Source of the DNA: a virus
Lineage: Duplodnaviria > Caudoviricetes
IMG/VR virus record: IMGVR_UViG_649989997_000001
Location: 1 to 64,000 of that record
Direction: 5' to 3' (one strand)
Length of the DNA: 64,000 nucleotides
The number at the start of each line of letters is the position of its first letter. Within the stretch, counting starts at the first letter, position 1. The position numbers and the translations under genes were made by a program. The notes beneath the pieces are model-generated. The model was not told the origin of the DNA. It did no database searches and saw only the letters and a program-made list of their open reading frames with translations. Positions 9,313 through 34,089 of this stretch are shown one piece after another.

Positions 9313-9327
9313 TTGCTTGTCCTCCCA

Positions 9328-9828: not shown

Positions 9829-9843
9829 GATGTATTTCCTCCC

Positions 9844-10845: not shown

Positions 10846-10863
10846 TGCGTATCTCCTTTCTGC

Positions 10864-11563: not shown

Positions 11564-11641
11564 CTCGATTCATCCTTTCCGAAGGGCGATTTGATGTTAC
11601 CCTTCACCTAAGAGCCACGGGAAATGCAAAACTTCATGGTT

Positions 11642-12136: not shown

Positions 12137-12320
12137 GGTCGTGTCCTTTCCGCCTTGGATGCGGGCGGCAGGAACACAAAAGGCCGATGCACGCGATGTA
12201 CACCGGCCTCTTTCGCTTGAAGATGGGCGCAAAAAGTCACGGTGGAAACACCGAAGTGCCAATACTGCTCGCGCAGTTCGTCTCTTCGTGCGTTCCCGCC
12301 GCCCCTAATGGCCATCTCAA
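12137..12320 (-). ncRNA. Putative structured cis-regulatory leader RNA of the sigma gene
   Basis: Alternative stems covarying with 63744..63908. Confidence 0.55.
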
Positions 12321-12762: not shown

Positions 12763-14714
12763 TTAAGCAACAATTTTCCCCCATGTTCGATACCCCTCAG
12801 CTTTTAGCTGGGTGTTGCAGAATGCCAGCGTGTCCATGAAGTGATGTTGTATAAGGTAGTGACCGAAAAATCCTTCCTCATCATCGGGAAAATCATTTTT
12901 TGATTTTTTTATCAAATCCATACTCAGAATAGGATGCAAATGCATTCCGATGCATAATGCACAAACACTCTCAAGAGATACTCGCGTCTCATCATTTCTA
13001 AGCTGACTAATGTAATCCTCTGATAATCCTGTCCTGATTGCCAATTCCATATTGGTAAATTTGCCCCGTCGGTTTGTTCTTGGATTATATGCATCCAATC
13101 TCTTCATGTGGGCATTTAATGTTCCCGAGAAGGAGTTGGGTAAGTTTCGCAGAATTTGCATCACGCGAATGCCCTCTTCTTTTAGCTTTTGCCGTTCAAC
13201 TGCTTGCTCTTTTTTGTCCTGCATATCCTCCTCATCGATATTACGTGTTTCGCTAAAAGATGCCGCATTTATATTTTGGCTCAGATAGCACATATTGTAA
13301 TAATCACCAGAACTTTTGTTAAGCTCATAGTTTCTGTTGAATTTCAAACAGCATTCATCAACATGCTCCAACCCATACTGTGTAAGTTCATAACCTTTAT
13401 CTTCACCCAGATATTTTACATATTTTTCGTCGTTGATGCAGACGAGATAGCCGAGATAAACAAATGCTTCACTCTCAAAGAGAGCCGCGAAAGATTCAGC
13501 CTCATCGTAAAGCCGCTCAAAATTCTTCTCGTCAAGCAAAAAAGTCTGATATTCACCGAGTGCATCAGGATTGAACACATACGGATACTTATAGCCCCCG
13601 TTTACATATAAAAAACTCCCCTCTGCACATTTGTATCCAAGCTGCAAGGCACGTAATTTTGCTTCATAGCGCGAAACACCGAAACACTTCGCAACACTTT
13701 CTAAAGCATTCTCCATAACATCCCCAGTGCGACGATAAGGCGTAGAATATTTTTCTTCAATAATCTTCGGAAAAATATCATCAAAATACACGCGTGGCAT
13801 TAAAATTCGGAGGGCAAGGGCATTAGCCTGCCATTCTGCCCACCAGACAGCCTTTTCCACACCCTGCAATGCTTCTGGTGTCACATCCGGCGACACTTTG
13901 CATGACAGGTTTGTCTCCTCCTGATTCAAGAGCGCCAGAATCTCGAAGAACTTCTGGTGTTTTTCCCAATGGATGATTTCATGGGCTATCGTATTGAGTG
14001 GGCTACCCAATTCCCCCATAAAGGAGCGTTTTTTACTGATGAGCATCGTTCCTGGTCGAAGTTCCTTTTCGACGGATTCCGTTCTATCATATAAGCGTGG
14101 ATAAAAAACCTCTCATCTACAATTTCTGTAGACTTGCGAAAATACATCCTGCCGAATTCGTCATCCGGCAAATCCGCTTGATAGAAGTCAATCCCCATCT
14201 CCTGCAAAAGGTGATCCACAGGAAAACACCACATATCATAAATGGCATTTTGACAGTAAAACGCTGTGAAATCATCAGCGATGTCTTCCAAATCCTCAGC
14301 GTAAATATATGGGATGAGATACTCATCCAAAGCATCTTCTTTGTCGAACTTCCCACCGAAATACTCCTCGGTATCTAGAACCATCATATCATGGAGACCA
14401 TTTTTTAGCTTTGCCTGTACTGTGATCGTGAACCATCTCGTTTTACGATCAGCCTCATATTTTTCTGTCCCGAGCCCAAGCAATACAATATCTGCCAAAA
14501 GATTGATTTCAATTTTGATGAGCGGCCCTACATCATCATGGCAAATCAGCGTTTTGATTTCGACATTTTCTACCTTTTGTTTGCATAGCGACAGAACATT
14601 TATGGAATGAAAGCCCATACCATCATGGGACTGATTCACGAAGGCTGATATTTCCTGCTCCAATATATTTATATAATTCGCTTGGAGATAACTCTTAAAA
14701 TCTGTGTATGCCAT
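12763..14714 (-). pseudogene. ImmA/IrrE metallopeptidase + XRE HTH protein split by a 1-nt frameshift
   Basis: HEIIH zinc motif and C-terminal HTH in 12763..14046; N-terminal part in another frame; one extra A at the A6 run 14103..14108 joins them. Confidence 0.75.
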
Positions 14715-14782
14715 CTGTCTTTCTCCCTCTTCCATGATAAGAAAATGCCGGAACCGCAATAAACAGCTCCGGCAGTCGGCCA

Positions 14783-17692
14783 TCAATAATACTGCTCAAT
14801 ATAGCCATAAGCCTTGTCGAATACTTCCTTGTCCTTGATTTTGTATTTCACCCAGACGACGCTGCGCAAAGCTTTCTTGACCTCCTGCTTGCCGGCTGTC
14901 GTGTTCTGCCAGCCATCGAAGCGGACAATCTTCACAATGCCGTCAATATCCATAACAATACGCTCCACGATGACAGGGGTATTCTGGTTTTTGACACCAT
15001 TGAAAAGCTCTGTGAGTGCGGCTTTGCCCTTATCGACTTCTTCCTCCGGCACAACTTCTTTTTCAACCTGTGCTGCCTCTTTCGCCATTTCGAGTAGGTG
15101 CTTCAGGAACTCGATGCTGGTGATAAGACCTTGCTCATGCTTTTCGCGTAGTTTTTCCAGCCGCTCTCCTAGTTCGATAAACTTTGGGTCATTGCCGTGC
15201 TTTTTGATTTTCGCCATCAAGTCGATCTCCATGTGCTTCGCCGCTGCTTTCGGAGTCTTGTGCTTTGCAATGAAGTCATCAATCAAATCCGCCGAGAGAG
15301 ACAAAATTTCCTCGTCCTCGTGGGTATGCCCCACTTCCAGATTTGAATGGACGATTTCCATGGTCTTGGCTCCCAAGGCCGCCCAGATCAGTGCGCCGCC
15401 ATTTCCCACAGGCTTGACGGATTCATAGACCTTGGTGAGCCACACATAGTCCATGCGATACGGTGTCAACACGGGGTCAGGAGACAGCGCATTCCAAGCA
15501 CGGTTCAATACACCATAATCAGCAGCGAACTGATCCTTCTCCTTGTTGGTGGGAATGCACTCCTGTGCTGCCATCAGCCCCTCCCAGCCGTCCACAGTAC
15601 GATCAACACCCATAAAATAACTGAGACATTTTTTTATGAGCGCCGGGATTTTCTTCTTGACCTCCTCGATATTGGTGACAATTTTCTTCATACTGGACTC
15701 ATCAAAATTGAGCGCTTTCGCCACATTGTCGAAGATGCCGATGTAGTCCACGATAAGCCCGAAGTTCTTTCCTTCATCATAGGTTCGGTTCGTGCGGCAG
15801 ATCGCCTGCAACAGCGTATGGTCTTTCATGGGCTTATCGAGATACATGACTTGGAGAATCGGTGCATCGAAGCCCGTCAAGAGCTTTGCCGTCACAATGA
15901 CGATTTGCAGTTTGTTGCCAGGATCGCGGAAGTTGTCGAGGACTTTTGCTTCCTCGTCCTTGGAGCGACGATAGGCTTTGTATTCGTCGGCTTTGTCATT
16001 GTTGGTATCCATGACAATGGTCGAGCATTCAGCGCCCAGCAGTTTATCCAGCTCCTTCTTGTATTGCAAGCAACAATGACGGTCGTAGACCACCACTTGT
16101 GCCTTGTAACCGTTCGGACGGATTTTCTCCGTAAAATGCTTGGCGATGTGGGCACAGACTTTATGTATGCGTTTCTCGTCGTACATAATCGCCTGCATAT
16201 TGACCCGCTTTGAAAGCTCTGCCTTGTCGGCCTCACTCAACCCCTCGGTCAGCACATCGAACTCTCTGTCCATCGTCTCCCTGTCAACCCTGAGGTCAAT
16301 AGGTACCGGCTCAAAATTGAGCGGTAATGTTGCACGGTCGCGGATGGAGTCAGAAAAGGAATACTTACTCATGTAGCCGCTGCGGTCTTCCGTTGCGCCA
16401 AACGTAGCAAACGTATTCTTATCGAGGCGGTTGATGGGCGTTCCCGTCAGACCGAAGAAAAATGCATTTGGCAGAGCCATACGCATTTTAACCCCCAAAT
16501 CCCCTTCCTGCGTTCTGTGACACTCATCCACCATAACGATAATATTATCACGGAGCGAAAGCTCTCCTTCCACCTCCTGAAAGCGGAAAATCGTGGTAAT
16601 GATGATTTTTCGGATGTCCATACGGAGTTTTTCCATGAGCTCTTGACGGGTGGATGCCGACTCCAAGTTTCCTACGTCGGACGCATGGAACTGTGCGGTA
16701 ATCTGGGATTCCAAATCCAATCGGTCGTCCACAATCAGCACCGTAGGATTCCGCAAATCCGGCAGCATACGCATCTTCACGGCAGCAAATTCCATAAGAT
16801 AGGATTTCCCCGAACCTTGGAAATGCCAAATAAGCCCCTGCTTAGGGTAGCCTACCCGAACACGGTGAATCATCATATTAGCGCCCTCGTACTGCTGGTA
16901 TCGGGCGATGACCTTGTATTTGCGATGTTTGCTGTCCGTGGCGTAAAGCGTAAAGAACTGGAACAAATCCATGACCTTGTAGGGAGTTATCATATTCTCC
17001 ATGCTGGTCTGAACAGCCACCAGACTCCCGTCTGACTTATCATCTGTCGTGTGCCACGGCCCCCACTTGGCTGCGGGCATACACACCGAACCATAGCGAT
17101 AGCGTTTGCCCTCGGTGGCAAAGTTAAAGACATTGCAGACGAACATCTGCGGAATGCTTTGCTCATAGGCATTGATGTCCATTGCTCCATCCAGCCAGCT
17201 GATCGAGGCGCGAACGGGAGTCTTTAGTTCTCCTATGACAAAAGGAAATCCATTCACCAGAAGAACAATATCCAGCCTCTTGCCGCCCTGCTTCGTTGGG
17301 TATATCCATTGATTGGTGACAACATAACGATTCTTGTCGCTCATGCCGTTGATTTCTGTGCCAAAATACTTGATGGATGTGTACTGGTTATCCTCACCAA
17401 AGGGAAACGTATTCTCCTCAAAAACCATGGCCTTGAAGCGTTCATTTTGCTCCACAAGATTATCGGCATTTGTAGTAGCAAAGAGCCGCCGCAGTTTGAT
17501 AAGCACCTCATCGGCACGAGAAGTGTCCTCGGCGATCTCCGGGTTAAGCGCGATGAGAGCCGAACGCACCATCTCTTCTTCAAAGGGATCGTTTTCACTG
17601 CGGGTGAATTCTTCCGGCGGCACATACTCCCATCCGATTTTGGTAAGGGTGTCGATAATCATCTTTTCCGTAGTATTGTCTTCATTAAACAT
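14783..17692 (-). CDS. hsdR: Type I restriction enzyme R subunit
   Basis: RLDIVLLVNG..IGELK nuclease, QGSGKS, DECHR, TGTP, LTGFDAP. Confidence 0.95.
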   Translation of the reverse strand: MFNEDNTTEKMIIDTLTKIGWEYVPPEEFTRSENDPFEEEMVRSALIALNPEIAEDTSRADEVLIKLRRLFATTNADNLVEQNERFKAMVFEENTFPFGEDNQYTSIKYFGTEINGMSDKNRYVVTNQWIYPTKQGGKRLDIVLLVNGFPFVIGELKTPVRASISWLDGAMDINAYEQSIPQMFVCNVFNFATEGKRYRYGSVCMPAAKWGPWHTTDDKSDGSLVAVQTSMENMITPYKVMDLFQFFTLYATDSKHRKYKVIARYQQYEGANMMIHRVRVGYPKQGLIWHFQGSGKSYLMEFAAVKMRMLPDLRNPTVLIVDDRLDLESQITAQFHASDVGNLESASTRQELMEKLRMDIRKIIITTIFRFQEVEGELSLRDNIIVMVDECHRTQEGDLGVKMRMALPNAFFFGLTGTPINRLDKNTFATFGATEDRSGYMSKYSFSDSIRDRATLPLNFEPVPIDLRVDRETMDREFDVLTEGLSEADKAELSKRVNMQAIMYDEKRIHKVCAHIAKHFTEKIRPNGYKAQVVVYDRHCCLQYKKELDKLLGAECSTIVMDTNNDKADEYKAYRRSKDEEAKVLDNFRDPGNKLQIVIVTAKLLTGFDAPILQVMYLDKPMKDHTLLQAICRTNRTYDEGKNFGLIVDYIGIFDNVAKALNFDESSMKKIVTNIEEVKKKIPALIKKCLSYFMGVDRTVDGWEGLMAAQECIPTNKEKDQFAADYGVLNRAWNALSPDPVLTPYRMDYVWLTKVYESVKPVGNGGALIWAALGAKTMEIVHSNLEVGHTHEDEEILSLSADLIDDFIAKHKTPKAAAKHMEIDLMAKIKKHGNDPKFIELGERLEKLREKHEQGLITSIEFLKHLLEMAKEAAQVEKEVVPEEEVDKGKAALTELFNGVKNQNTPVIVERIVMDIDGIVKIVRFDGWQNTTAGKQEVKKALRSVVWVKYKIKDKEVFDKAYGYIEQYY

Positions 17693-18250
17693 GAGCTACT
17701 CCTTCCTAATTGGTCAAATTTCGATTTGTCGGCTTGTTCAAATAGCCGCTCAAACTCTATTTGCAATTCCATCGGAGGAACACTAATCTTTAGGGGAGAA
17801 ATGTCTTTGTTGTTGAGCTGGGGAACAGTAGAGCCGTTATACAAACTTCCTAAGTCCATACTCATAAAATAGCTATACAGATAGGTTGTGCGAATATTAT
17901 CTTTAGGCAAGACCCCCATAATATTGAGATCACAACAAGTATCATGTACCAGAATCCTTTTCTTATTAGTTGCTATAGCTGCTCCTCTTTTAGGAAAAAT
18001 CACAGAGCCTTTTTGAAGAAAGGTGTTTCCTGCGTTTTTTCTGCTAACATACCTTGTTGAAGTGTTTATGTAGATGCTGTTTTGAGGTAAATTCATATCT
18101 GATACTTTGATATAGGGTATAGCACCATCGTCAGTTTCCATATCTGTCGAAAGGGTTGTACCACTTTTCAAAATACATTCATCGCCTATTGTGCTAACTG
18201 AAAACAACGGATTTTTGCTATCCCCGAACAATTCAACAAATTGTGATTGA
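17659..18250 (-). other. Silent half-hsdS (single TRD) cassette
   Basis: Starts FQSQFVELFGD right after the integrase stop, with no RBS; ends EQADKSKF; typical TRD motifs. Confidence 0.85.
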
Positions 18251-18252: not shown

Positions 18253-19248
18253 TCAGGCGATGAACTTCCGATGGGAGTTTTTGACGTTGTTCTGGTCAAC
18301 CATGGCGTATTCCATGGTGGTGTCAATCTTGCTATGACCTAAAAGCTGCTGTACTTGCTCAATGGGCATTCCTTTGTCGATGGCTCTGGTGGCGAGCGTG
18401 CGTCTGAATTTATGCGGATGCACCTTTGGTATGCCGAGCTTTTTGCCCATGTCGCGGAGGCGAATCTCTACGCCGCTGATATGGAGGCGGTTATGGGGCT
18501 TTTGCAAAGAAACAAAGAGTGCCGGATTATCATCGATACGGCTGTCCAGATAATTCTTGAGGTGTATCTTCGTCCGGGCATCGAAATATACGGGACGTTC
18601 CTTGCTTCCTTTGCCAAAGACGATGCACTCGCGACTCTCGAAATCTACATCACTGCGGTTTAGCCGCACAAGCTCCCCCACCCTCATGCCCGTCGAGGCA
18701 AGGAGATCAATCATAGCCAAGTCACGACTATTGGTACAGTTGTCCCGCATTTGCTCCAACGCCTCATCTGTGTAGGTTTCCTTGACTACCTTCGCCGTCT
18801 TGATTTTGTGGATACGGCGCACCGGGCTTTTGAGGATGTAGTTCTCCTCCTCAAGCCAGGCAAAAAAGCTGGAAAGAATACGGCGAATATTGTCGATATT
18901 GGACTTGCTGCATCTGTGTTCCTCCTGATACTCCGAAAGGTATTTTCGCAAATCGTCCGTGGTGATTCGGGTGATGTGCTTATCGAAGCTGCCCAGAACC
19001 TTAAGGAGTGTCGTCTGGTAATAGTTGAGAGTTCTCTCGCTGCATCCCTCCACTTTTTTAGCAGCGGTAAACATGGTCAAAAGTTCCTCATTGCCGTGGA
19101 CGGCTTCGGGGATAGCGGCGGGCGCACACTCCGTGACTGCCTTATTGGCGAGACACTTTGTCAGTGTCTGCCGCAAGAGGATAAGCTGGGCGTTATCCAG
19201 ATGCGGGAGCATCCCCTGCATGATGTCGGTGATCAGGATGTCTTTCAT
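18253..19248 (-). CDS. Tyrosine recombinase (integron-integrase-like, RM-associated)
   Basis: TGMRVGEL, GKGSKER, HKFRR, LLGH, Y catalytic residues. Confidence 0.93.
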   Translation of the reverse strand: MKDILITDIMQGMLPHLDNAQLILLRQTLTKCLANKAVTECAPAAIPEAVHGNEELLTMFTAAKKVEGCSERTLNYYQTTLLKVLGSFDKHITRITTDDLRKYLSEYQEEHRCSKSNIDNIRRILSSFFAWLEEENYILKSPVRRIHKIKTAKVVKETYTDEALEQMRDNCTNSRDLAMIDLLASTGMRVGELVRLNRSDVDFESRECIVFGKGSKERPVYFDARTKIHLKNYLDSRIDDNPALFVSLQKPHNRLHISGVEIRLRDMGKKLGIPKVHPHKFRRTLATRAIDKGMPIEQVQQLLGHSKIDTTMEYAMVDQNNVKNSHRKFIA

Positions 19249-19331: not shown

Positions 19332-20207
19332 TCAATTTTCCATATGTTTTTCCCCCTCTTTAATAATTTCTGTTATTAAAGAGGAATACCATACATTTCC
19401 TAAACCATATGAATGTTGCTGTCCTGTCATAGAATCTGTCCATTGATATTCACCGGAATATACTCCCAGTAAAATAAATTCTTTGCTACCATCACGATAC
19501 ATTAGTTCTCCATTATGAACTGTAATATTGGTAGGCTTGCTTATTACCAGTCCACCAGAAGATCCAGGAAATAGCTGCGCGTCAATTTGAAAGATTGGTC
19601 TTCCATTGAAGTTCCCCCCCCAGCAGGATGCAATTATACCTGATTTTATTATAGGAAATTTGTTGTATATATCATAAAATCCTCGTGGATAGCTTGCTAC
19701 AATTATGTCGCTAGTTACTTCGATAGATATTGGCTGATTGTTCGGCAAGTTATCTTGTGTTAGTGTAACTGGAATAATAATATTTTTAATTTCTTCATCA
19801 TCCTGTGTGATTTTTTGCATTATATATTCAGATACATCTATTGCAACTACATCTACATCAATATTTCTATGAAGTAATAAGGATCTTCTTAACTCGTCTT
19901 TCGACAGTGTAATTGGAACCCATTCAATACTTCCATTATGTTCTTTTCGTAAATTAAATGTTAAATTGTGGGCTAAACACTCTACGTCGCCTATGGTATT
20001 GAAAACAACATGTCGATTGGTAACAAGCCAAAACTTATCAAATCTTTCCCAATGGCCCTCAGGCCCATCTGTAGGATTAGATGTTGTTTCATTAAAGAAA
20101 AAACCTGTTGCCTGTGCGCTCGCAAATCCATTTCTTATCGCATATTGTGTTTCTATTATAGTTGTTATTGCAAATAACTGTTGATCCACACTCATTTTAT
20201 CAGGCAC
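19332..20207 (-). CDS. Trypsin-like serine protease (AT-rich)
   Basis: VTNRHV (His), DVVAI (Asp), PGSSGG (Ser). Confidence 0.82.
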   Translation of the reverse strand: MPDKMSVDQQLFAITTIIETQYAIRNGFASAQATGFFFNETTSNPTDGPEGHWERFDKFWLVTNRHVVFNTIGDVECLAHNLTFNLRKEHNGSIEWVPITLSKDELRRSLLLHRNIDVDVVAIDVSEYIMQKITQDDEEIKNIIIPVTLTQDNLPNNQPISIEVTSDIIVASYPRGFYDIYNKFPIIKSGIIASCWGGNFNGRPIFQIDAQLFPGSSGGLVISKPTNITVHNGELMYRDGSKEFILLGVYSGEYQWTDSMTGQQHSYGLGNVWYSSLITEIIKEGEKHMEN

Positions 20208-20222: not shown

Positions 20223-21353
20223 TTATTTCAAGTACTCTCTCAAAATGGCTAATTTCATAGCAGCGTTTTTTTTGAGAATCTCTCTGATCGTCAATTTCGA
20301 TTTGTCGACTTGTTCGACAAAGGCATAATAAGCGTTTTGAACTTCATTGGGGGGCTTAATGATTTCAAGCCGTGAAATAATAGGAACATTCAAGTTTGGC
20401 ATGGTTTGTCCGACTGCCATATCTTCAAGCATCTTCTTGAATGAAGGAAAGGAAATGATTTTTTGCAGAAAGTCTGCTCTGACTTCTCCAAGAGTACGTA
20501 TTATCATGCTTCCTGTTCCGCAGAGCAAACCAGATGTTTGTACGACGGCACAGCGACCCATTTCACCCCGTCTGCCTAGAACAACATCATTCTCAAAAAG
20601 ATGGTATGCAGATAGTTCTTTATATTTTGTTTCGGAGATTGTTAGTTTTTCATCTATAACGATGTTGCCATCATGTACGTGCGAGGGATTCACTACGGGA
20701 TGCCCGCCCACAATGTAATCTTCTCTGTGGAGCAGTGAGCCGAATGGTCCAATTTTTATTTCGGCTAAGGCTGATAAGGAGACTTTCTGCCAGCCATGAG
20801 TATTCAATATTGGATCACCGAACATCTCTACAAATTGTGATTTGACGAGTTCCTCCATAGCAACCGCCAGTTCTTGATAAGCGGCTCGCGTGTCCTCTAT
20901 CGCCCACAGCACATCAGCCAGTTCACGTTGCTTGTCCATCTCCGGCAACTCGAAGCTGTAAGTTTTCAGATGCTCCCACTTCACGCGGGGTGATAGCGAG
21001 CCTGCCGACCGCCCCACAGCAAAATCAAAGAAGTCGTCGTTTTGAATGACGAAGGGTAGTAGCCTCGGTTCCATCTTATCCTGTATCGCCCGAATTACGG
21101 TAATATCCCCGGAGCAAATACCCTCGAAGGGAGCTATGGCCGCCTTTTTCAGATATGCCCGACGGCGTCCGAAAAGAATATCTCCTTCGTGAAAACGCTT
21201 TGTGAACGTATTATCACTGCCTACGTCATACTCCGACAGGCGAATTTCTCCCGGGGTTATATGTTCAAGGCCGACCGTGGGAAAACCGCTCCTATCCCCT
21301 TTGCAGGTCTCACGGGCTTCCATGGCCACCTCGCCCAATGTCACTTTTGCCAC
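20223..21353 (-). CDS. hsdS: Type I RM specificity subunit
   Basis: Two TRDs joined by the LVKSQFVEMFGDP conserved region; ends EQVDKSK. Confidence 0.93.
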   Translation of the reverse strand: MAKVTLGEVAMEARETCKGDRSGFPTVGLEHITPGEIRLSEYDVGSDNTFTKRFHEGDILFGRRRAYLKKAAIAPFEGICSGDITVIRAIQDKMEPRLLPFVIQNDDFFDFAVGRSAGSLSPRVKWEHLKTYSFELPEMDKQRELADVLWAIEDTRAAYQELAVAMEELVKSQFVEMFGDPILNTHGWQKVSLSALAEIKIGPFGSLLHREDYIVGGHPVVNPSHVHDGNIVIDEKLTISETKYKELSAYHLFENDVVLGRRGEMGRCAVVQTSGLLCGTGSMIIRTLGEVRADFLQKIISFPSFKKMLEDMAVGQTMPNLNVPIISRLEIIKPPNEVQNAYYAFVEQVDKSKLTIREILKKNAAMKLAILREYLK

Positions 21354-21368: not shown

Positions 21369-22880
21369 TCAAAATGGTATCGTATTTTCCTCGCAATTGT
21401 CCTTCAACAAAACATTCAAGTTGTCGTAGCAATCTCTGAGTGCCAACGAAGACGCATACCAATCATCGTAACACTCCTGCACACTTCGTGTGTCTTGTTC
21501 TTTCGTCTCCTCCATCGTTACTTGCACGTAAAGAGGAATATTCAGCGAGAAGTCATTTTTCTCAATGTCCCGTATGGACACTTTCTTTGCAAAGCCCTCT
21601 TCGCTTTTATAGGTGTTGTATGCCTTGGAAATCCGCTCGATGTGCTGCGACTCCAAATAGCTCCGCGCATTTTTGCGCGTCACTTCGTTTAGGGCATTGA
21701 TGAACAGCACATGATTTTTGTGCGTATCAGGCTTCTCTGTGCGGCAAATGACAATGCACGCCTCCATGGGGGAATTATAAAAAAGATTTGCTCCCAGTCC
21801 GATCACGCAGTCCACCCAATCAGAGTGCACCAGCTTCTCCCGCATTGCCCGCTCCTCGTTGCGGAACAGCACCCCATGCGGAAACAGGATCGCACAGCGT
21901 CCTGTCTTGTCCTTCATACTCACGAGAATATGCTGAAAGAACGCATAATCGGCTCTGGCCTGTGGCGGCACGCCTAAGATATTCCTGCCGTACTTGTCGA
22001 ACTCGAATGCCGCACGGCTCCATTGGTTCACGGAATAGGGCGGATTTGCAACGATCATGTCGAACTGGCGGAGTTTTCCGTTTTTCGTAAAGGCAGGATT
22101 GGCAAGCGTGTCGCCATTTACGATTTCAAAATCCTCGATGCCGTGCAAGAAGAGGTTCATACGCCCGATCGCGGAACTCAGCAGATTGATTTCCTGCCCG
22201 AAGAGGGACACGTTTCGCCATTCCTTTCCCGACCGCTTAAGGTGGGCAATAGCGGAAATCAGCATCCCGGCACTGCCGCACGTAGGGTCATAGATGGATT
22301 CGCCGGATTTGGGCTGCAATATCTCCGTCATGAGGTGTACCACCGTACGGTTGGTGTAGAACTCTTGCGCCGTATGTCCACTGTCATCGGCAAACTGCTT
22401 GATAAGGTATTCATAGCCTTGCCCAAGCTCGTCCTCCGGACAGTTTTCCAGAGACAATGTATACTTGCTGAAATGTTCCATCAGATCCTTTAAGAGCCTG
22501 TCCGGGAGGCGATTCTTGTTTGTCCATGTGCCATCGCCAAAGATGCCAGTGAGCTTCTCGCTGTTGGCTTTTTCCATCGCGCGAAAGGCTGTGACGATTG
22601 CCTTGCCCACGTCAGATGGAACATTTCGCACATCGTCCCAATGGAAGCCGTCCGGGATTCTGTAGCTATGGATCTCGTCCCATTCGGCAGCCTCTTCACC
22701 GTTTTCTTTGACAGCCTTGGCGGTTTCTTCCTCGTACACATCATTCAGACGCTTGAAAAAGAGCAATGGAAAAATGTATTGCTTGTAAGAGCCGGCATCC
22801 ATTTTCCCGCGAAGGATGTCCGCCGATCCCCAGAGATAGGATTCCAGTTCCGAGAGTGTTATTTTATTCTCCATGGACAT
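21369..22880 (-). CDS. hsdM: Type I RM methyltransferase, NPPY type
   Basis: HsdM_N (LW.SADILRG), DPTCGSAG, ANPPY. Confidence 0.93.
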   Translation of the reverse strand: MSMENKITLSELESYLWGSADILRGKMDAGSYKQYIFPLLFFKRLNDVYEEETAKAVKENGEEAAEWDEIHSYRIPDGFHWDDVRNVPSDVGKAIVTAFRAMEKANSEKLTGIFGDGTWTNKNRLPDRLLKDLMEHFSKYTLSLENCPEDELGQGYEYLIKQFADDSGHTAQEFYTNRTVVHLMTEILQPKSGESIYDPTCGSAGMLISAIAHLKRSGKEWRNVSLFGQEINLLSSAIGRMNLFLHGIEDFEIVNGDTLANPAFTKNGKLRQFDMIVANPPYSVNQWSRAAFEFDKYGRNILGVPPQARADYAFFQHILVSMKDKTGRCAILFPHGVLFRNEERAMREKLVHSDWVDCVIGLGANLFYNSPMEACIVICRTEKPDTHKNHVLFINALNEVTRKNARSYLESQHIERISKAYNTYKSEEGFAKKVSIRDIEKNDFSLNIPLYVQVTMEETKEQDTRSVQECYDDWYASSLALRDCYDNLNVLLKDNCEENTIPF

Positions 22881-25284
22881 ACCCCCCTTTCATCAGAAGC
22901 CGCTGCATTTTCTCCTCTGCAGAACGTACCTTTTCGAGTGTTTCAAAATAAGTACGGCGTACGACCTCCGGCGGCACTACTTTCTGCGGCTTTTTTTCGA
23001 TATAACGCTTCACATTGAGATCGAAGCCCCCCTGCTCGACATCAGCAATGGTAACCACCTTGCAGCGTTCCATCACATCTTCGTAGTCTGCGTAAAACTG
23101 ATAGAGCGTATCCACGTTTTCATCCGAGAGAATATTCTGCGCCCGCATGGGCGTATAGACTTCCGAACCGTCGATGAGGCAGATACGTCCTTTATGTTTA
23201 TGCTCCTTCTTCTTCGTGAGGAAAAGGATACACGCAGACACGCCCGTACTGTAAAAGACACCGCTGGCAAGCGTGATAATAGCCTCCAGCAAATCCGCTT
23301 TGATGATTTCCTTACGGATACTCCCCTCCTTACCGCCGTGGAAAAGTACACCCTGCGGCAGAACCACCGCACAGCGACCGTTGTCCTTATCCATGGATTT
23401 TATCATGTGCTGCAGCCATGCAAAGTCAGCATTGGCATCCGTAGGGCAGCCCCAGATGTTTCTTCCGTACTGGTCGGAATCGAATACATCCGCCCCCCAT
23501 TTCGACATTCCAAAGGGAGGATTGGCCAGCACACAGTCAAACGTTTTGAGCTTGCCGCCTTCGAGGAAAAGTGGTTTCCGAAGGGTATCACCCTGCCGAA
23601 TCTGCACATCCTTTGCGCCATGGAGATAGAGGTTCATTCTGGCAATGGCGGAGGTGGAAAGGTTGTTCTCCTGCCCATAGATTTTTCCGTAGGTCAGTTT
23701 GCTGTTTTTCATATGATGGATGGATTCGATGCACATTCCCCCTGTGCCGCAGGCCGGATCGTACACCGATTCTCCCGGGCGCGGATCGAGCAGACGCACC
23801 ATAAGCTTAACGATGGAACGAGGCGTGTAAAATTCTCCGGCGTTCTTCTTGGACATATCCGCAAATTTCTTGATGAGATATTCGTAGCTGTCACCCATGA
23901 TATCAGCAGTGTAGTTTTTGTTTCCCACCTTCACCTTGGACATATGCTCCACGAGGTCTTTCAGACGTTCATCCGTCAGTTTGTTTTTGTTCGTCCATGT
24001 ACCGTCGTCAAAACTGCTGAACACGCCGGAAAGGGTAAGCGGATTTGCTCTTTCAATGCCCGACATGGCATTCACGATAGCCCTGCCTACATTTTCACTG
24101 ACATTCCGCACATCATCCCAATGGCAGCCTTCGGGAATGTCAAAGGAATGCATATCCTCAGCGGAGGCATATTCCTCATCACCTCCGGATTCCTCCAAGG
24201 CATCCTGATACTCCTCGTCATATACATCGGAGATGCGTTTGAAAAAGAGAATCGGAATGACATAGCTCTTGAACTCATCCTGATTGATCGGTCCCCGAAG
24301 AATATTACACGCCCCAAAAAGGTGATTGAAGAGCTGCTCACTGGTCGTTTCTTCCGGTACGGGAGCAGCTTCTTTCACATCCTCCTCGGCGGCAACAAGC
24401 GATGCCTGCATGATTTCGGCTCTATTTTCTCCGTTGACTTTTCGCTTGCTGCTACGTTTTACGGGAACACGCATATTGCCCATGTTCTTTTCCATAACGG
24501 GCGGGTACTTGTTCTCGAAATTCATTAAAATCCGCAAAAGCTCTTCATCCAGGAACGTGAGTACGTGTTTTCGTATGTCGGACGGGATGCCGTAATAAGC
24601 CTCGGCAATTCCTCCAGTGATGGCAGCAACGGTGTCGCTATCACCACCGATGGAAATGGCATTTCGGATGGCATCCTCAAAGCCCGTGGACTCGAAAAAG
24701 GCCATAAGTGCTTGCGGTACGGTGTCTTGGCAAGTTTCGTTAAACTGGTATGTATCGCGAATACCGTCCAGCGTAAAATTCATGGGGTAGTAATTTTTGT
24801 CAATAACGTCCCGTATCTCCAAAATACTGCTGCCGCTCCGCGCCATATAAAGAGCCCCCACGGTAGCTTCCGCCCCTTTCAAACCTTCTGGATGATTGTG
24901 TGTGACGGCAGTGATTCTTTCAGCGAGCATTTTGGCTTCATCCATACTTCCAGCAGCAAACCCAGCGGCACTGACACGCATAGCGGCTCCGTTACCGAAG
25001 CTGTTATAGGGCTTTGGTTCATCAGAAAACATCCAGCCATAAAAACGACCGCCATAACCGCAGTCAGGATATTTTCTGCCGATACGCTGCATACACTCTA
25101 CGGACTTTTCCGCAAGGTCGCTGTAGTCGGGTTTGCTCTCCAAGATCGCTTGTGCCAATGCGAGCGACATAACACTGTCATCTGTGAAGAAACACTTATA
25201 GGTAAGAAGATCAAACTCCTTCGACCGATGATTGTCCCACTCGAAGCGGGAGCCGACAATATCTCCGACGATGGCTCCTAACAT
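22864..25284 (-). CDS. ADP-ribosylglycohydrolase-HsdM (NPPF type) fusion
   Basis: GAIVGD, FTDDS, SFGNGAAMR, THNH, GGDSDT (ARH/DraG), then HsdM_N, DPACGTGG, ANPPF; AAAGGAGG RBS before ATG 25284. Confidence 0.9.
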   Translation of the reverse strand: MLGAIVGDIVGSRFEWDNHRSKEFDLLTYKCFFTDDSVMSLALAQAILESKPDYSDLAEKSVECMQRIGRKYPDCGYGGRFYGWMFSDEPKPYNSFGNGAAMRVSAAGFAAGSMDEAKMLAERITAVTHNHPEGLKGAEATVGALYMARSGSSILEIRDVIDKNYYPMNFTLDGIRDTYQFNETCQDTVPQALMAFFESTGFEDAIRNAISIGGDSDTVAAITGGIAEAYYGIPSDIRKHVLTFLDEELLRILMNFENKYPPVMEKNMGNMRVPVKRSSKRKVNGENRAEIMQASLVAAEEDVKEAAPVPEETTSEQLFNHLFGACNILRGPINQDEFKSYVIPILFFKRISDVYDEEYQDALEESGGDEEYASAEDMHSFDIPEGCHWDDVRNVSENVGRAIVNAMSGIERANPLTLSGVFSSFDDGTWTNKNKLTDERLKDLVEHMSKVKVGNKNYTADIMGDSYEYLIKKFADMSKKNAGEFYTPRSIVKLMVRLLDPRPGESVYDPACGTGGMCIESIHHMKNSKLTYGKIYGQENNLSTSAIARMNLYLHGAKDVQIRQGDTLRKPLFLEGGKLKTFDCVLANPPFGMSKWGADVFDSDQYGRNIWGCPTDANADFAWLQHMIKSMDKDNGRCAVVLPQGVLFHGGKEGSIRKEIIKADLLEAIITLASGVFYSTGVSACILFLTKKKEHKHKGRICLIDGSEVYTPMRAQNILSDENVDTLYQFYADYEDVMERCKVVTIADVEQGGFDLNVKRYIEKKPQKVVPPEVVRRTYFETLEKVRSAEEKMQRLLMKGGYVHGE

Positions 25285-25298
25285 TCGCCCTGCCTCCT

Positions 25299-26894
25299 TT
25301 ACAGCCGTGCCTGTAATTTTTCCAACGTATTGTTCCACCGTTCCTCAGCGGCTTTTAGCGTTGAAAGATACACTTCCAGTTCCCGTTCGTATTCCTCTGT
25401 CAATTTCTTCTGCTCATGGATGGCAGGAAGCGGTATCTCGACCTCCTGCACATCCCGAAAGCTCAAGTTCACCACTACCGTCCCCTGCTGCGCCGAGGAC
25501 AGGATTTTGCCGCCTAAGGGACTGTCAAAAAACATCTTGAGATAGGTACTGTCCAGCAAATCCTGTCGTGGACGAATGACAACCATATTCGCTGAAGCAA
25601 TGCAGGGATAATCCTGCCGGTGAAACACGGCACTGCGCGTCGCTGTCCCTCTTGCCGTAAGCAGCACATCGCCATCCTCCAATAGATAGCTCGTAAGTTT
25701 ACGCTCAACCTCGCTGATGTGATCCAAGCCGTCGTAATCAATGACATACTCGCCGACATTTGATATGGTGACAACGCCAACATTGCCGTTTTCATCCTTA
25801 CGGGAGATGTTCTTTCCGCGAAAAACCTGCGCCACTTCCTTTAATTTGATACGGCTGTCCTTTTCCATAAACCGTTGCCAATCCTCATCCTGTCGAGCAA
25901 AGAGTTTATCAACGTTCCAATCTCCCTGCTCCGACAGTTCCGATGACACAACGAAGGAATCCTTGAGCAAAACCAGTTCCCGTGATACACGGTTTTTCCC
26001 TTGATCAAATCCGTACCGCTTAATCGTGACATCTTCTGTTTTTCCCGCAGAAATAACGAACAAATGCGTCTTGACTCCTGTACCGACAAATATGCCGTCT
26101 GGGAGTTCCGCTATTTCTTCAAGACAATACATCTCTTGGATAAAATTGCGGAGATTCGCTATACGGCCGCCTCCAAAGGTGATCTTGGCAGGCATGACAA
26201 TGGCTAGTTTGCCTGCGGAGGACAAATGCAAAAGCAGATTCTCCAAAGCAACCATCTCATAATCCCGACACATAAACCGATTGAGATCGTCCACACGATT
26301 GCGTCTCCCCATTGTCGGAACGGACATAATCAAATCAAATTTCTCCCGCAAGAACTCGTATTCGTAGATACTTGTTTTCTGAACGACTGTATGAGGGTAT
26401 GCTCTTAGAATTTCCTTCAACAATATGACATGGATCTCCCGCTCTACCGTAAACAAATAGCAGCAGTAGGCATATTTTTCAACCATATCTTTGATATATG
26501 GCGCAAATCGCTGCCCCTCGGCAATCAAAACCTGCTCTGTTTCCGGCTGTATCTGCTCTTCCATCATTTTGAAAATTTCGCCGGGAATATGCAGATGATC
26601 GCTTTCGTCAAGAGAGAGCATTACTTCCCAATCGACATCTTCAATACCATCTGTCATGCGATAGATCTCATTCAACGAATTTATATCAATAAAAGGATTA
26701 TCCAGTCCCCACTGATCACACTGCCGAAACATGATGTTTTGTACTTCTTGATTGCAACTGCTGCCCGCTCTCTCCCCCAATACACGTCGTGTCTCTCTCA
26801 TCAGAAAAAGTGCTGTAAGAACTCTCTCCTCTGCACTGCCAAGAACGTTGCAACATCCCTTATAGAGCCATTCTTCGTATCTTGCTCCCTTCAT
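25299..26894 (-). CDS. Degenerate N6-MTase-like domain fused to a single TRD
   Basis: FDLIMSVPTMG (degenerate motif IV), GKLAIVMP, LPDGIF..TGV; C-terminal TRD (GDVLL..RGT, IPLP..EQ). Confidence 0.7.
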   Translation of the reverse strand: MKGARYEEWLYKGCCNVLGSAEERVLTALFLMRETRRVLGERAGSSCNQEVQNIMFRQCDQWGLDNPFIDINSLNEIYRMTDGIEDVDWEVMLSLDESDHLHIPGEIFKMMEEQIQPETEQVLIAEGQRFAPYIKDMVEKYAYCCYLFTVEREIHVILLKEILRAYPHTVVQKTSIYEYEFLREKFDLIMSVPTMGRRNRVDDLNRFMCRDYEMVALENLLLHLSSAGKLAIVMPAKITFGGGRIANLRNFIQEMYCLEEIAELPDGIFVGTGVKTHLFVISAGKTEDVTIKRYGFDQGKNRVSRELVLLKDSFVVSSELSEQGDWNVDKLFARQDEDWQRFMEKDSRIKLKEVAQVFRGKNISRKDENGNVGVVTISNVGEYVIDYDGLDHISEVERKLTSYLLEDGDVLLTARGTATRSAVFHRQDYPCIASANMVVIRPRQDLLDSTYLKMFFDSPLGGKILSSAQQGTVVVNLSFRDVQEVEIPLPAIHEQKKLTEEYERELEVYLSTLKAAEERWNNTLEKLQARL

Positions 26895-28575: not shown

Positions 28576-29673
28576 TCACGCCGCCTCTCGATCATCATTA
28601 CATTGTATCGTTATTGACGTTACTTCGTTCATCGCCGCTACCAAAATGATACTAGAGGGAAACGTCAGCGTCGCATTCGCACGCGACACCGTAATCTGGC
28701 GATCCTCGATCGGCTCGCGCAGCACCTCAAGTGTCTTCTTGCTGAACTCCGGCAGTTCATCCAGAAAGAGCACGCCGTGATGCGCGAGTGTCACCTCGCC
28801 CGGACGCGGGATGCTCCCGCCGCCGATCATCGCCACCGTCGATGACGTATGATGCGGACTGCGGAAGGGACGCGTGGTCACAAGCCCTGTATCCTTGCCG
28901 AGCAGCCCCGAGATGCTGTATATCTTTGTGATCTCGATGGCTTCTTCCTTCGTCAGTTCCGGCAAAATCGAACTCATCCGACGTGCCAGCATCGTCTTGC
29001 CCGAACCGGGTACACCGACCATCAGAACATTATGCCCTCCTGCCGCCGCAATCTCAAGCGCACGTTTCGCCTGATACTGCCCCTGTACGTCCGCAAAGTC
29101 ATCGGTGAAGGCAGCATCTTTTTTCTGTTCTGTTGCTTGTGGCACAGCAGGAGTCAGCACCTCTGTGCCAGTCAAATGACGCACAAGCTGTGCCAGATTC
29201 TCGACGGCATAGACCTTCAGCCTGTCAATCAGGAGTGCCTCGTCTGCATTCGACGGTGCAACGTAAAACTCCGTCAGCCCATGTTCTCGCGCCGTGATTG
29301 CCATCGGGAGAATGCCGCTGATCGGTCGGCAGTTCCCATCGAGGGAAAGCTCTGCCGAGAAAAGCGCACTCTGCACTGCCGCCTCGGGAACCATACCGTA
29401 GGATGCAAGGAGACCAACCGCAATTGGCAGATCAAGCCCCGAACTGTCCTTTCGCACATCGGCAGGTGCGAGATTGACCGTAACCCGCTCCTGCCGCAGC
29501 TGCATACCGGAGTTGCGAATCGCAGTTCGTACCCGCTCCTTCGATTCCTTCACCGACGTATCGGGAAGCCCGACCAGCTCAAAGCCCGGCAGCCCCGGCG
29601 ACACATCCACCTCAACGTCGATAATCCGTCCATCTATCCCGAGGGTCGTCGCACCATAGGTCTTTGCAAACAA
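28576..29673 (-). pseudogene. comM: 5' part of comM (YifB Mg-chelatase-like ATPase), truncated
   Basis: [32 protein letters not shown]; ends after LVAAMN with 16 unrelated residues instead of PCPCG and the C-terminus. Confidence 0.9.
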
Positions 29674-29800: not shown

Positions 29801-31609
29801 TCATTCTGTATCAGAATCAATTATACATGCAGTCCAATCAATTTCCTCGTGCTCCTGCCGAAAGAGAAAGAACTTCATATAGGTATATACATCCTTCAGG
29901 GAGATCATCACACAGACAACATCCTCTCCCCACCGATCGGTCAGGTACTGGAGTGCTCCCTGATAGCGATTCGTCGGCGATACCAGTATATCCCATCCGG
30001 CAAGGTATTTTACGTAGCACTCAAATTTCCGCATATCTGTGGAGATTTCTCTCGGCTTCATACTTGCAGCAAATGCCCGTGCCGCAAGGACTTCCTCCGA
30101 CGGAACTAAGCATACGGAAAGCGTATCCTGTTTACTGTCGACCTCCTCCCACACTTTTTCATGCCTTTCCACGGCAAACCGCTCAGGATCATCATCGAAT
30201 ACATGGACACGCTGCCCCCATTCTTCATAAATTGTAATCGGGCGCATGTAGAACATCAAGAAACCACGATCTTCACTCCGATCAACTGACTCTACAACAA
30301 AGGGCGTACCGTCAAAGAATTTTCCTATGGTATATCCATCATTCATTTCGGTCAGTGCATCTGGATTCCACGGTGTCATGCGGATGTCACAGGTCAAATC
30401 ATCAAATTTATCATTGGGATCACAGAAATAACCCATTTCATGTGATGCAAGCAGTCCTCGAGGGTCACGATCCAACCTGTCCTCTGCCGTATCATCATCT
30501 GCCCACAGATTCAGCTCCGGCAGCTTCTCCGACTCCTCAGAGGGGGCCTCTTCATCCGTGCACTCCTGCAGTGTGAGTCCCTGCGTTTGAAATACCTCGC
30601 GGAAAACATCGCAATGCTCGCCTGCCGCAAATACAACAGTGTCAAATGCCTTCGCATAGGTCTTCATGAGCGCGGCATACGCCTCGGCAACAATGTCCGG
30701 CGGATTCTCCCGATAGTCACAGCCAAAGGCGGGAAGGACAAGAATCCTCTCTCTTTTCTTCCCGTCAAGCCGGTAGCGAGCACGCTCACAAATCGCTCTG
30801 CCGCGCAGAACGTGCAAGGAGAACAGTGCTGTTCTTACCAGACTGTCACTCATATCATACGAATTTTCCTTCTCATGGGTAAGCACTCTTTTCGCCGGAG
30901 AACTCATGTGGCCGCCCGCCATATTCGGCGGTGCACACGTGATGACGTCGACATATCCCCACTCGCTCTCGGGGAGAGGCTGCGGCACTCCCTCGCGAAC
31001 CTCCTTAAAGATCGTGATATTCTCTGAATAGATGCAGTCGTTCGTTGCCTCATCATCCTCGTCTGCAAGATTCTTTTTGTAAAAAGCTTTCCATATATTT
31101 TCGCCCACAAGTGTCGAATAGAGATTGGAACAAATGCAGAGGTTTTCCTCCACGCCGTCGGCACCGATGTGAACGTAACCGCCGGGGCTTGTCGCAGACC
31201 CTGGGTTCACCGCCACAACTAGCTTGTCCGGATGCGCAAGGGAGAGTTTTCGCGCGATGTCTACCAGTTCCCCCGTCTGGACATAAATGTGCGCCTCTTC
31301 CCCACATATGCCAAGGAACCTGCGCCCTCTGGAACTCCCCAGACACTGCATCCCCATCGTACGGCTATATGCGTCTTCCTCACAAAAGTGCACGACTGGC
31401 ACATTCAGATCAAGGTCTTCATAATCGTCACTCATAGAGTTGAGTATCGTCTCGGTGATAGCACAAGAATACGGGCTCAGACGCACATCTTCCAACACAC
31501 GACGCTGTGTGTCCACGAAGGCATGGCGCATCTCAAATCCCCGTTTCATCCGCTCCTTCGCCAAGCGCTCTCTACGCCACTGCTGCCACTGCTCTTCATT
31601 ACTCTTCAT
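29801..31609 (-). CDS. TIGR02452/DUF2263 bacterial PARG-like macrodomain protein with unknown C-terminal domain
   Basis: VAVNPGSATSPGGY..GADGVEENLCICSNLY, CIYS, VITCAPP, LPAFGC..NPP. Confidence 0.75.
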   Translation of the reverse strand: MKSNEEQWQQWRRERLAKERMKRGFEMRHAFVDTQRRVLEDVRLSPYSCAITETILNSMSDDYEDLDLNVPVVHFCEEDAYSRTMGMQCLGSSRGRRFLGICGEEAHIYVQTGELVDIARKLSLAHPDKLVVAVNPGSATSPGGYVHIGADGVEENLCICSNLYSTLVGENIWKAFYKKNLADEDDEATNDCIYSENITIFKEVREGVPQPLPESEWGYVDVITCAPPNMAGGHMSSPAKRVLTHEKENSYDMSDSLVRTALFSLHVLRGRAICERARYRLDGKKRERILVLPAFGCDYRENPPDIVAEAYAALMKTYAKAFDTVVFAAGEHCDVFREVFQTQGLTLQECTDEEAPSEESEKLPELNLWADDDTAEDRLDRDPRGLLASHEMGYFCDPNDKFDDLTCDIRMTPWNPDALTEMNDGYTIGKFFDGTPFVVESVDRSEDRGFLMFYMRPITIYEEWGQRVHVFDDDPERFAVERHEKVWEEVDSKQDTLSVCLVPSEEVLAARAFAASMKPREISTDMRKFECYVKYLAGWDILVSPTNRYQGALQYLTDRWGEDVVCVMISLKDVYTYMKFFLFRQEHEEIDWTACIIDSDTE

Positions 31610-31671
31610 ACCCTACAGCTCCTCTCTCTTCACAATCACAAAAGAATATACGAACGTCAACCGACTTTAAC

Positions 31672-32619
31672 TCACCTCCGCTGCAGCGGTATCTGCAAAA
31701 GATAGGTTTGAAACTCTTCGATCGAGTACATCGTCTTATCATAGAGCCCATATCCCATCATCGAGGCTGCCGCAAATTTCACGGGGAAGGGATAGTTAGA
31801 CGGCTGCAATCCTGTCACAATCGTATGGAGACCATTCTTCTCGGGGTCATGATTCGCCAGCAAAAAAATCAGTGCGATGTTCTCACTCTGGATTGTAATA
31901 TCGTGCGGCAAGTTCTTCATGTCAGGAATCAGCCCGAGTTCGCATTTCTGACGAAAGACCTCGGCATAGTCGGCACAGATGGCGGGGAGGTTTGCCGTCT
32001 TCAGAAAATGCCCAAAATCTCTTAGGTGCTCCATCAGCCCCGATGTACCGGACTGTGCCCCATCACCGTACTTCATCTCGATGAAAGCCAGCTTCGGCGC
32101 GTGGAGGTTTTTGCGTACCGCACCGATTGACGACCAGTGCACGGCAACCATGTCAAAACGTGCATCCTCATAGACAAACTCTGTGTCGACGATATAGTAG
32201 TCCGTCGCATGAGAAATCTCCCCATGACGATTGTTATCGCGCTCAACAAGCTGCTGAAACTCACGCTCGTACTTTGGATATTCTGAAAACCACCGATCCA
32301 TCGCCTGTTTATAAATCGGCACCTGTTCGATCGCCTCCGCAATGGAGGGCTGTCCCGAAAGGTTTTGTCCATGACTACAATAGTTCGTGTCAAAATGCAG
32401 CACGTACTGCGTTCCGTTCCACTCGATGCGCAGCAGACTTCCTCCACGATAGTAAATACTGGCACATGTCCCCCGCATTTCGAGCTCCAGCGTTGCGTCC
32501 TGAAGCACGAGATTCAGCAGTCCGTTCAGACATCCACACGAATTCTTCAGATCGTGAAACATTTTCGAGCCAAGTGCTCTCATTTCAGCCGTCCTTTCTT
32601 CCCATAACAGTATCAGCAA
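31672..32619 (-). CDS. Putative PD-(D/E)XK nuclease-fold protein
   Basis: ERE.QQ...DTEF...RFDMVA...FIEMKYG arrangement. Confidence 0.55.
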   Translation of the reverse strand: MLILLWEERTAEMRALGSKMFHDLKNSCGCLNGLLNLVLQDATLELEMRGTCASIYYRGGSLLRIEWNGTQYVLHFDTNYCSHGQNLSGQPSIAEAIEQVPIYKQAMDRWFSEYPKYEREFQQLVERDNNRHGEISHATDYYIVDTEFVYEDARFDMVAVHWSSIGAVRKNLHAPKLAFIEMKYGDGAQSGTSGLMEHLRDFGHFLKTANLPAICADYAEVFRQKCELGLIPDMKNLPHDITIQSENIALIFLLANHDPEKNGLHTIVTGLQPSNYPFPVKFAAASMMGYGLYDKTMYSIEEFQTYLLQIPLQRR

Positions 32620-34084: not shown

Positions 34085-34089
34085 ATCCT

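Follow-up and report, generated by a model that had tools for sequence, protein, structure and literature searches.

Type I restriction-modification (R-M) systems with two different methylases form a described, non-canonical group. In these systems the upstream methylase M1, which carries an NPPF motif, makes N6-methyladenine (m6A) and the downstream methylase M2, which carries an NPPY motif, makes N4-methylcytosine (m4C). Both sit as a heterodimer on one S subunit (M1M2S methyltransferase), and the parent two-methylase type is functional in E. coli (Morgan et al., 2016, PMC5100572). Cleavage is carried out by HsdR. The PacII structures (7VRU/7VS4) place AGEF/NPPF in M1 and AAEF/NPPY in M2, and the N-terminal domain of M1 forms an M1-M2 clamp around the DNA (PMC9613975). 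In both papers the string "ADP-ribos" is counted zero times. Here we describe a system of this type in which M1 is fused to an ADP-ribosylglycohydrolase (ARH). It lies in a stretch of 64,000 nucleotides of the IMG/VR record IMGVR_UViG_649989997_000001; this stretch, called the window in the following, comprises the first 64 kb of the 114.5-kb record, which is classed as viral (CheckV 100%).

Erasers of ADP-ribose have been placed in related contexts before. Orphan host systems centred on ARG domains were predicted to counter viral ADP-ribosylation (Iyer, Burroughs, Anantharaman and Aravind, 2022, PMC9503650, section 3.8), and an eraser without a coupled transferase was predicted to act on the adducts of an extrinsic, e.g., viral, enzyme (PMC9503650). 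A further case is the prophage-encoded Bxa, a fusion of the capsid-targeting MuF with a promiscuous arginine ADP-ribosyltransferase (ART), which kills bacteria. Its locus also encodes the small binder Bsi and BAH, an ARH which removes the arginine-linked ADP-ribose that Bxa puts on many proteins and whose E15A mutant is dead (PMC11699363). MuF toxins constitute a broad, prophage-encoded polymorphic family, the biological role of which is stated to be unknown (PMC11699363).

The fused ARH-M1 protein and its R-M system

The ARH-M1 gene lies on the minus strand and encodes one protein of 806 aa (22864-25284; Table 1). The longest frame (22864-25338) begins at a GTG, and the likely start is the ATG at 25284-25282, which follows an AAGGAGG after an 8-nt spacer; the TAA stop of the upstream gene (25301-25299) overlaps this Shine-Dalgarno sequence. 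Pfam recognizes ADP_ribosyl_GH at residues 1-233 (E 3e-32), HsdM_N at residues 320-447 (E 7e-21) and N6_Mtase at residues 460-767 (E 1e-97). The methylase part has retained motif I (DPACGTGG, 509-516) as well as AGEF (482-485) and NPPF (588-591). Between both enzymes lie 58 charged residues, a basic patch followed by an acidic run. In the full-length AlphaFold2 (AF2) model this linker is not merely disordered: a hairpin (263-276) and a helix (288-306) are modelled with predicted local distance difference test (pLDDT) values of 80-92. The predicted TM score (pTM) of this model is 0.57, so that the mutual placement of the domains is uncertain. An earlier, sequence-only reading of the window had described an ARH with intact metal ligands that is joined by a charged linker to a complete HsdM, and this anatomy is borne out by the Pfam domains and motifs; the metal ligands TDD and DSDT which it named are T34-D35-D36 and D215-S216-D217-T218. 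The strong ribosome-binding site which it placed at the ARH start was also found, with the qualification that a GAGGAGG occurs within the linker 2 nt ahead of an in-frame GTG (codon 303). An internal translation start at this codon, giving a free M1, is unlikely, because the spacing of 2 nt is too tight.

From its intact active site, the ARH domain on M1 is predicted to be catalytically competent. It scores 112.8 bits against PF03747 (cut-off 26.2) and is matched over profile positions 3-281 (of 287). E15, located within GDIVGSRFE, is the catalytic Glu; in the HMMER alignment this stretch corresponds to the equivalent N-terminal motif of ARH3, and GGDSDT corresponds to GGDTDT of the same enzyme. 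ARH3 is also the best sequence match among solved structures (E 1.7e-13), with no closer solved relative. The AF2 model of the domain shows the all-helical fold of ARHs, with a pLDDT of 93 for the model and of about 98 over residues 1-260, and Foldseek searches with it yielded ARH3, MJ1187 and DraG with a probability of 1.00 and TM scores of 0.60-0.68. Reading the substrate from the structure was not successful, as Foldseek places ARH3, DraG and MJ1187 about level and gives no discrimination.

The system is of the known PacII type among the non-canonical type I R-M systems, predicted to place m6A and m4C on opposite strands of a bipartite site, and the fused methylase is its M1 subunit. The best PDB match of the M1 core is PacII M1 (7vru_A, 491 bits vs. 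413 for 7vru_B), whereas that of M2 is PacII M2 (7vru_B, 558 bits vs. 442 for 7vru_A); chain B of 7vru (504 aa) was taken as M2 from the residue numbering in PMC9613975. For HsdS the best match is PacII S (7vru_C, E 1e-32), far ahead of the next best (3.5e-9), and with the full-length model Foldseek lists 7vs4_A/7vru_A first, at 46% identity. These reciprocal matches agree with the idea of the sequence-only reading that the fused methylase belongs to an M1M2S complex, and they assign it to the NPPF subunit of a heterodimeric system of the PacII type. M2 is unfused, starts 17 nt before the end of M1 and is a paralogue with 43% identity to the M1 core. The combination of AGEF/NPPF and A[AQ]EF/NPPY with M1 upstream of M2 was found in 68/80 related loci. 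In M2 of the window the motif is AQEF and not AAEF; as related M2 genes carry AAEF in 48/80 and AQEF in 19/80 cases, we read AQEF as a variant of the clade.

Recurrence, constraint and loss of the fusion

The same four-domain architecture recurs in more than 120 clusters (90% identity) of a search covering 5.8 billion proteins. The proteins are 74-98% identical and mostly 805 aa long. On contigs from a collection with one genome per species, the fusion is present in about 14 species genomes of gut and rumen Bacillota. Hosts include Faecousia, Ruminococcus, several Lachnospiraceae, Oscillospiraceae, Acetatifactor and Eubacterium, and furthermore Phascolarctobacterium, Acidaminococcaceae, Selenomonadales and Veillonellaceae. 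The order ARH-M1-M2-S-R also occurs on 10 IMG/VR viral contigs, and related loci share the neighbourhood MS531 - ARH-M1 - M2 - S - (recombinase, spare S) - R (for MS531 see below). The sequence-only reading had named a stop codon lost once as the objection to be checked. Such a one-off event, like an assembly error, is ruled out by the clusters, species genomes and viral contigs listed above; the fusion recurs and shows purifying selection.

The ARH and the methylase core are constrained to the same degree, and purifying selection acts on the active site of the ARH. In 131 fused sequences, E15, T34, D35, D36, D215, D217 and T218 are each conserved to at least 97.7%, and column identity averages 0.79 in the ARH, 0.78-0.82 across the methylase domains and 0.51 in the linker. 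Among 171 locus pairs the non-synonymous proportion amounts to 0.18 for the ARH, 0.16 and 0.20 for the M1 domains and 0.42 for the linker; these are raw proportions in place of dN/dS, as synonymous sites are saturated (about 0.86) in all but one of the pairs.

In a maximum-likelihood tree of M1 cores, genes with and without ARH are interleaved within one gut/rumen clade. The ARH-less locus L013 is nested in a clade with ARH (support 100/98), and the ARH-less L017 is sister to the ARH-bearing L006. Moreover, M1 of L013 begins with what is left of the acidic C-terminal portion of the linker ("...AQAADD...PEETSSRQLF"), which shows that the ARH was deleted secondarily. The tree and the remnant indicate that the ARH was lost secondarily at least once and that it is an accessory module which the system does not need structurally. 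The divergence of the ARH tracks that of M1 across loci, and the fusion probably has a single origin; an arrangement with ARH and M1 as separate genes was not seen among related loci.

The ARH itself belongs to a large subfamily of short enzymes (about 260 aa) that begin directly at the catalytic helix. An exhaustive HMMER search with the domain yielded 10,074 relatives. Among the best 150 of them (36-77% identical), 107 are longer than 330 aa, i.e., fused to another part. The majority of these partners have no Pfam name, and the named ones are scattered over DUF6508, SseB, HD, GNAT, protein kinase, RecA, patatin, TnsA and RNase T. A methylase partner was found in only two of 93 relatives checked, and the HsdM fusion appears to be one event inside a promiscuous family of ARH modules. 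Seen from the side of the methylase, M1-like relatives of more than 870 aa were M-S fusions only, and a macro, NADAR or ARH domain was present in none of the best 120.

In public databases the fused proteins are labelled simply as "type I restriction enzyme M protein". In the literature searched, we found no paper that couples an ADP-ribosylglycohydrolase with an HsdM or type I methylase as a fusion; literature in which both are mentioned together refers to separate genes on one element, e.g., PvCTn. The two-methylase system, the ARH family and the predicted orphan erasers were known, and the ARH on M1 is apparently new.

Possible targets of the tethered ARH

The reading we favour, to which we assign a probability of roughly 40%, is that the tethered ARH is an eraser which undoes ADP-ribosylation inflicted on proteins by an invader and thereby serves the self-repair of the restriction complex. 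Phages and mobile elements of gut and rumen bacteria would deliver ARTs, e.g., capsid-associated MuF-ART toxins of the Bxa type. Arginines of host proteins would be modified by these ARTs, also in the restriction complex that first meets incoming DNA. On a tether of roughly 58 residues, the ARH would be kept at a very high local concentration near M1, M2, S and R. With the adducts removed by the ARH, restriction and modification would keep working as the foreign DNA enters.

The locus was screened for the corresponding writer. ADPrib_exo_Tox (PF03496), MuF (PF04233), ART-PolyVal (PF18760) and DarT (PF14487) all gave no match anywhere in the 114.5-kb record. For PF03496 the control detected the domain in 3/3 phage records; the PF18760 and PF14487 controls stayed silent, and divergent writers would escape. 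As far as these four families are concerned, no ADP-ribosyltransferase toxin was found beside ARH-M1, unlike the case of the immunity hydrolases of the BAH type. Among five host genomes, one contained a PF03496 match, which was weak, and the other four had none. No toxin-like gene conserved around the operon was seen in about 30 related loci. The two genes which follow hsdR (Table 1) are unsupported as writers: the 427-aa protein shows faint signals of Peptidase_M78 (ImmA/IrrE), HTH and CapP, and for the 266-aa protein no named or recognizable relative was found.

Standalone relatives of the ARH do occur next to ARTs. A tblastn search over 50,697 phage records detected 18 with this ARH, among them Bacteroides phage Versailles (45% identity over 260 residues to the ARH of the window) and Porphyromonas phage005 (49%). 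In both phages the ARH is followed by an ORF of approximately 107 aa, and the two genes converge on a large protein of the virion module near portal and terminase, the C-terminus of which is an ADPrib_exo_Tox domain in Versailles (E 2e-16). The same neighbour was found at no less than 11 of 34 standalone IMG/VR ARHs (47-51% identical), with the ART confirmed in two. The ARH closest in the phage databases (63%), on the fecal "phage" contig MT837245, is uninformative; a PLD-helicase-DUF3427 protein lies next to it, without an ART.

The counter-counter-defence proposed by the sequence-only reading fits the search for a writer in operon and record, which found none, the prediction for orphan ARG systems (PMC9503650) and the phage ARHs located by ARTs; both the ADP-ribosylation of type I enzymes by phages and the substrate of ARH-M1 are matters which we infer. 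Several points weigh against an eraser of invader-inflicted protein adducts. The ARH was lost while the system was kept, which implies that any benefit would be conditional. The closest phage ARHs in IMG/VR (53-57%) lie among replication and early genes (PcfJ, D5 primase, UvrD) with no ART near, from which it follows that the subfamily seems to serve more than one purpose and is not tied to one role. Phages with MuF-ART and ARH were recognized by similarity to Bacteroides and Porphyromonas phages, and the fusion occurs in Bacillota. Finally, the many unrelated fusion partners of the subfamily could equally mean a small-molecule or regulatory role.

Known anti-restriction measures against type I enzymes comprise DNA mimics (Ocr, ArdA), DNA modification and co-injected protectors. 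In the literature we did not find an enzymatic inactivation of the restriction complex by ADP-ribosylation described, and a conserved, active-looking eraser on a core subunit hints that such an attack exists. That ADP-ribosylation of type I complexes or of the DNA they inspect is a real and common anti-restriction tactic, with ARH-M1 as the counter-counter-defence of host or prophage, seems doubtful to us at present. If the favoured reading is true, ARH-M1 would be a restriction enzyme that repairs itself and an instance of what was predicted from genomics only, i.e., host systems which undo viral ADP-ribosylation (PMC9503650). It would also give the capsid-associated ADP-ribosyltransferase toxins of gut phages (PMC11699363) a possible target in bacteria. 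The fusion makes an ADP-ribosylation attack on restriction testable at the bench, as the system is compact and the single change E15A provides the control.

Alternatively, the tethered ARH might cleave ADP-ribose off DNA bases or off DNA ends, at the recognition site or ahead of it, whereupon methylase and nuclease would act on DNA that was modified by the invader for masking or by a DarT-like toxin of the host. We consider this improbable. An activity of ARH3 on ADP-ribosylated DNA ends has been reported, and the basic patch in the linker is conserved, both of which speak for an action on DNA. So does the attachment of the ARH to the N-terminal domain of M1, which in PacII is the M1-M2 clamp on the DNA (PMC9613975). 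An ARH-like antitoxin, "DarG3", was moreover reported for the DNA ADP-ribosyltransferase DarT (PMC13069673), which makes it plausible that ARH folds work on ADP-ribosyl-DNA. On the other side, the record contains no DarT match, a weak argument as the control was silent, and the fold match does not separate substrates. We know of no phage that ADP-ribosylates its own DNA for escape from restriction. BAH, whose locus arrangement is copied by the phage relatives, acts on protein arginine (PMC11699363).

A similarly low likelihood is given to a small-molecule or regulatory function, in which the ARH hydrolyses or merely binds a soluble NAD-derived compound, such as free or O-acetyl ADP-ribose, alpha-NAD or a signalling nucleotide, and couples R-M to the NAD/ADP-ribose state of the infected cell. 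The joining of the subfamily to very different partners is typical for sensor or processing domains in conflict systems, and four viral ARHs (L096, L097, L099, L127) are paired with an HD phosphohydrolase, a pairing also described for the processing of ADP-ribose (PMC9503650). The conserved catalytic Glu and the complete set of metal ligands argue for turnover over mere binding, however, no gene of the operon makes such a signal, and from phyletic patterns ARG domains were concluded to prefer macromolecular adducts (Iyer et al., 2022, PMC9503650).

Self-immunity appears very unlikely. In this case the ARH would be a BAH-like antidote to an ART toxin which the prophage or host itself carries, with the fusion to hsdM merely ensuring that the ARH is expressed. 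The phage homologues (45-51%) are such antidotes by gene arrangement, and the locus lies on a record classed as viral. This is opposed by the search for writers described above, with all four families without match in the record and a working PF03496 control, by the lack of a conserved toxin gene in related loci and by the four host genomes without a PF03496 match. The phage of the window, furthermore, has a portal/ClpP/capsid module of the HK97 type with no MuF.

A neutral fusion, in which the stop codon of an adjacent ARH gene disappeared once in an ancestor and the ARH plays no role in restriction, would agree with the probable single origin and with the loss of the ARH from a system that was kept, but it is extremely improbable for an ARH which is constrained like the methylase core (at saturated synonymous sites), has an almost invariant active site, is kept across several bacterial families and viral contigs and was never seen split from M1 in related loci.

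The surrounding locus and comparison with known systems

The features of the operon are summarized in Table 1. HsdR is 63-87% identical across related loci. Directly upstream of M1, MS531 is encoded, which shows a degenerate motif IV (SVPT instead of NPPF/Y) and no clear S-adenosylmethionine motif I, and the C-terminal half of which resembles the half-S protein Esub1 (structure 8vsq, E 3e-33). This gene precedes M1 in most related loci of the gut clade regardless of the ARH, including the ARH-less L013, and its product is probably a catalytically dead M-like/half-S protein. The trypsin-like peptidase between hsdS and the recombinase was not seen as an insertion in the related loci checked.

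Two pairs of repeats are common to hsdS and the hsdS' region (18220-18248 / 20814-20842, 86%; 17717-17739 / 20293-20315, 96%). The repeats are direct, not inverted, and flank the second target recognition domain (TRD) of hsdS and the spare half hsdS'; the tyrosine recombinase and the trypsin-like peptidase are located between these two. Recombinase and hsdS' would constitute a specificity-switching module, in which recombination would delete or exchange sequence and not invert it.

Table 1. Features of the R-M operon on the minus strand of the window, in order of position
Feature	Position	Strand	Basis or remark
Gene pair after hsdR (266 aa, 427 aa), unnamed	12763..14786	-	Kept after hsdR in L007, L014, L088, L089, L094
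HsdR restriction subunit, 969 aa	14783..17692	-	Pfam HSDR_N, SWI2_SNF2, T1R_D3; PADLOC REase_I, E 1.5e-113
Spare half hsdS'	17659..18231	-	Pfam
Tyrosine recombinase	18253..19248	-	Pfam
Trypsin-like peptidase between hsdS and recombinase	19332..20207	-	Pfam Trypsin_2, E 2e-8; PADLOC candidate PDC-S45, E 1.7e-33
HsdS specificity subunit, 376 aa	20223..21353	-	Pfam Methylase_S, PADLOC Specificity_I
M2 (m4C-type) methyltransferase, 503 aa, NPPY and AQEF	21369..22880	-	Pfam, PDB match
M1 (m6A-type) methyltransferase core, residues 314-806 and stop	22864..24345	-	Pfam, PDB match, Foldseek
Linker, residues 256-313	24346..24519	-	Conserved FENKYPP, basic patch VPVKRSSKRKV, then acidic helix
ARH domain, residues 1-255	24520..25284	-	Pfam PF03747, AF2 model, Foldseek
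Shine-Dalgarno AAGGAGG	25293..25299	-	8 nt upstream of ATG 25284; sequence reading
MS531, methylase-like with single TRD	25299..26894	-	Pfam partial N6_Mtase and Methylase_S

The R-M island extends over about 12.3-28.5 kb of the window and has a GC content of 0.43-0.50, compared to 0.51-0.56 around it. It begins right after a ComM-like Mg-chelatase ORF (28576-29673, minus strand) of just 365 aa, which ends inside the AAA domain, matches profile positions 1-161 of 207 and has no C-terminal domain. This suggests that the island was inserted into comM. On both sides phage-like segments are found. The left one (1-12300) contains TerS (2284-2844), a ParB-methylase, a primase-helicase, an SNF2 helicase and AAA_24. 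The right one (35593-64000) starts with two tandem serine recombinases (35593-38810), followed by an HK97-type capsid/ClpP/portal/TerL module (40120-45571), and further holds a methylase, TerS (50427-50987), SNF2, VapE, PolA and DUF2800. The R-M island thus lies between two phage segments of like type, and these may be two tandem prophages flanking a defence island. In three IMG/VR contigs (L100, L101, L120), ARHs that are standalone or fused to DUF6508 (47-49% identical) directly precede a tandem pair of serine recombinases, and the second recombinase of the pair is 48-51% identical to the one at 35593-37161 of the window. The position of these ARHs suggests that related prophages also carry the ARH as cargo at their integration end.

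A second cluster related to ADP-ribose (29801-35492, minus strand) lies upstream of the R-M operon at a distance of 4.5 kb. Its genes encode a 602-aa protein whose catalytic domain is of the microbial PARG/macro type (PF10021, TIGR02452), an unnamed 315-aa protein, an REase-ARP nuclease (PF22558), an HD protein and a WYL/WCX regulator. The cluster is similar to the conflict systems with orphan erasers in Iyer et al. (2022, PMC9503650), with the PARG-like domain replacing ARG. A linkage of this cluster to ARH-M1 was not found in related loci. In the contigs L096, L097, L099 and L127, an HD protein precedes the ARH (53-55% identical) within about 1 kb and is 28-31% identical to the HD protein at 33518-34084 of the window.

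In comparison with the characterized hydrolases DraG, ARH1 and ARH3, the ARH of the window has the fold, the binuclear metal site and the conserved catalytic Glu in common, but its identity to them is just 20-25% and it is shorter, with about 255 aa vs. 290-350 aa. With BAH it has in common that it is a short form of about 260 aa which starts at the catalytic helix and has its catalytic Glu at position 15. Phage ARHs in a Bxa/BAH/Bsi-like arrangement are 45-51% identical to it, figures that refer to these phage proteins and not to BAH. In contrast to BAH, which is free-standing beside its writer, the ARH described here forms one protein with a restriction methylase, and the search for a writer near it found none.

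The orphan ARG systems (PMC9503650) likewise consist of an ADP-ribose eraser without a coupled transferase in a defence context, and the ARH subfamily of the window is, as in those systems, also fused to SseB and found next to HD domains. However, ARG is combined there with phosphatases, chaperones, WYL or Nudix regulators and REases, and a link to HsdM or type I R-M is not made; the terms "HsdM", "methylase" and "R-M" are counted zero times in PMC9503650.

Closest to the system as a whole are the PacII-type systems, with the same gene order M1, M2, S, R and with M1, M2 and S each closest to the corresponding PacII chain. The operon of the window differs from them by a degenerate methylase-like/half-S gene ahead of M1, by the insertion of a recombinase-driven hsdS switch and a peptidase and, above all, by the 313 residues of ARH and linker which its M1 bears at the N-terminus.

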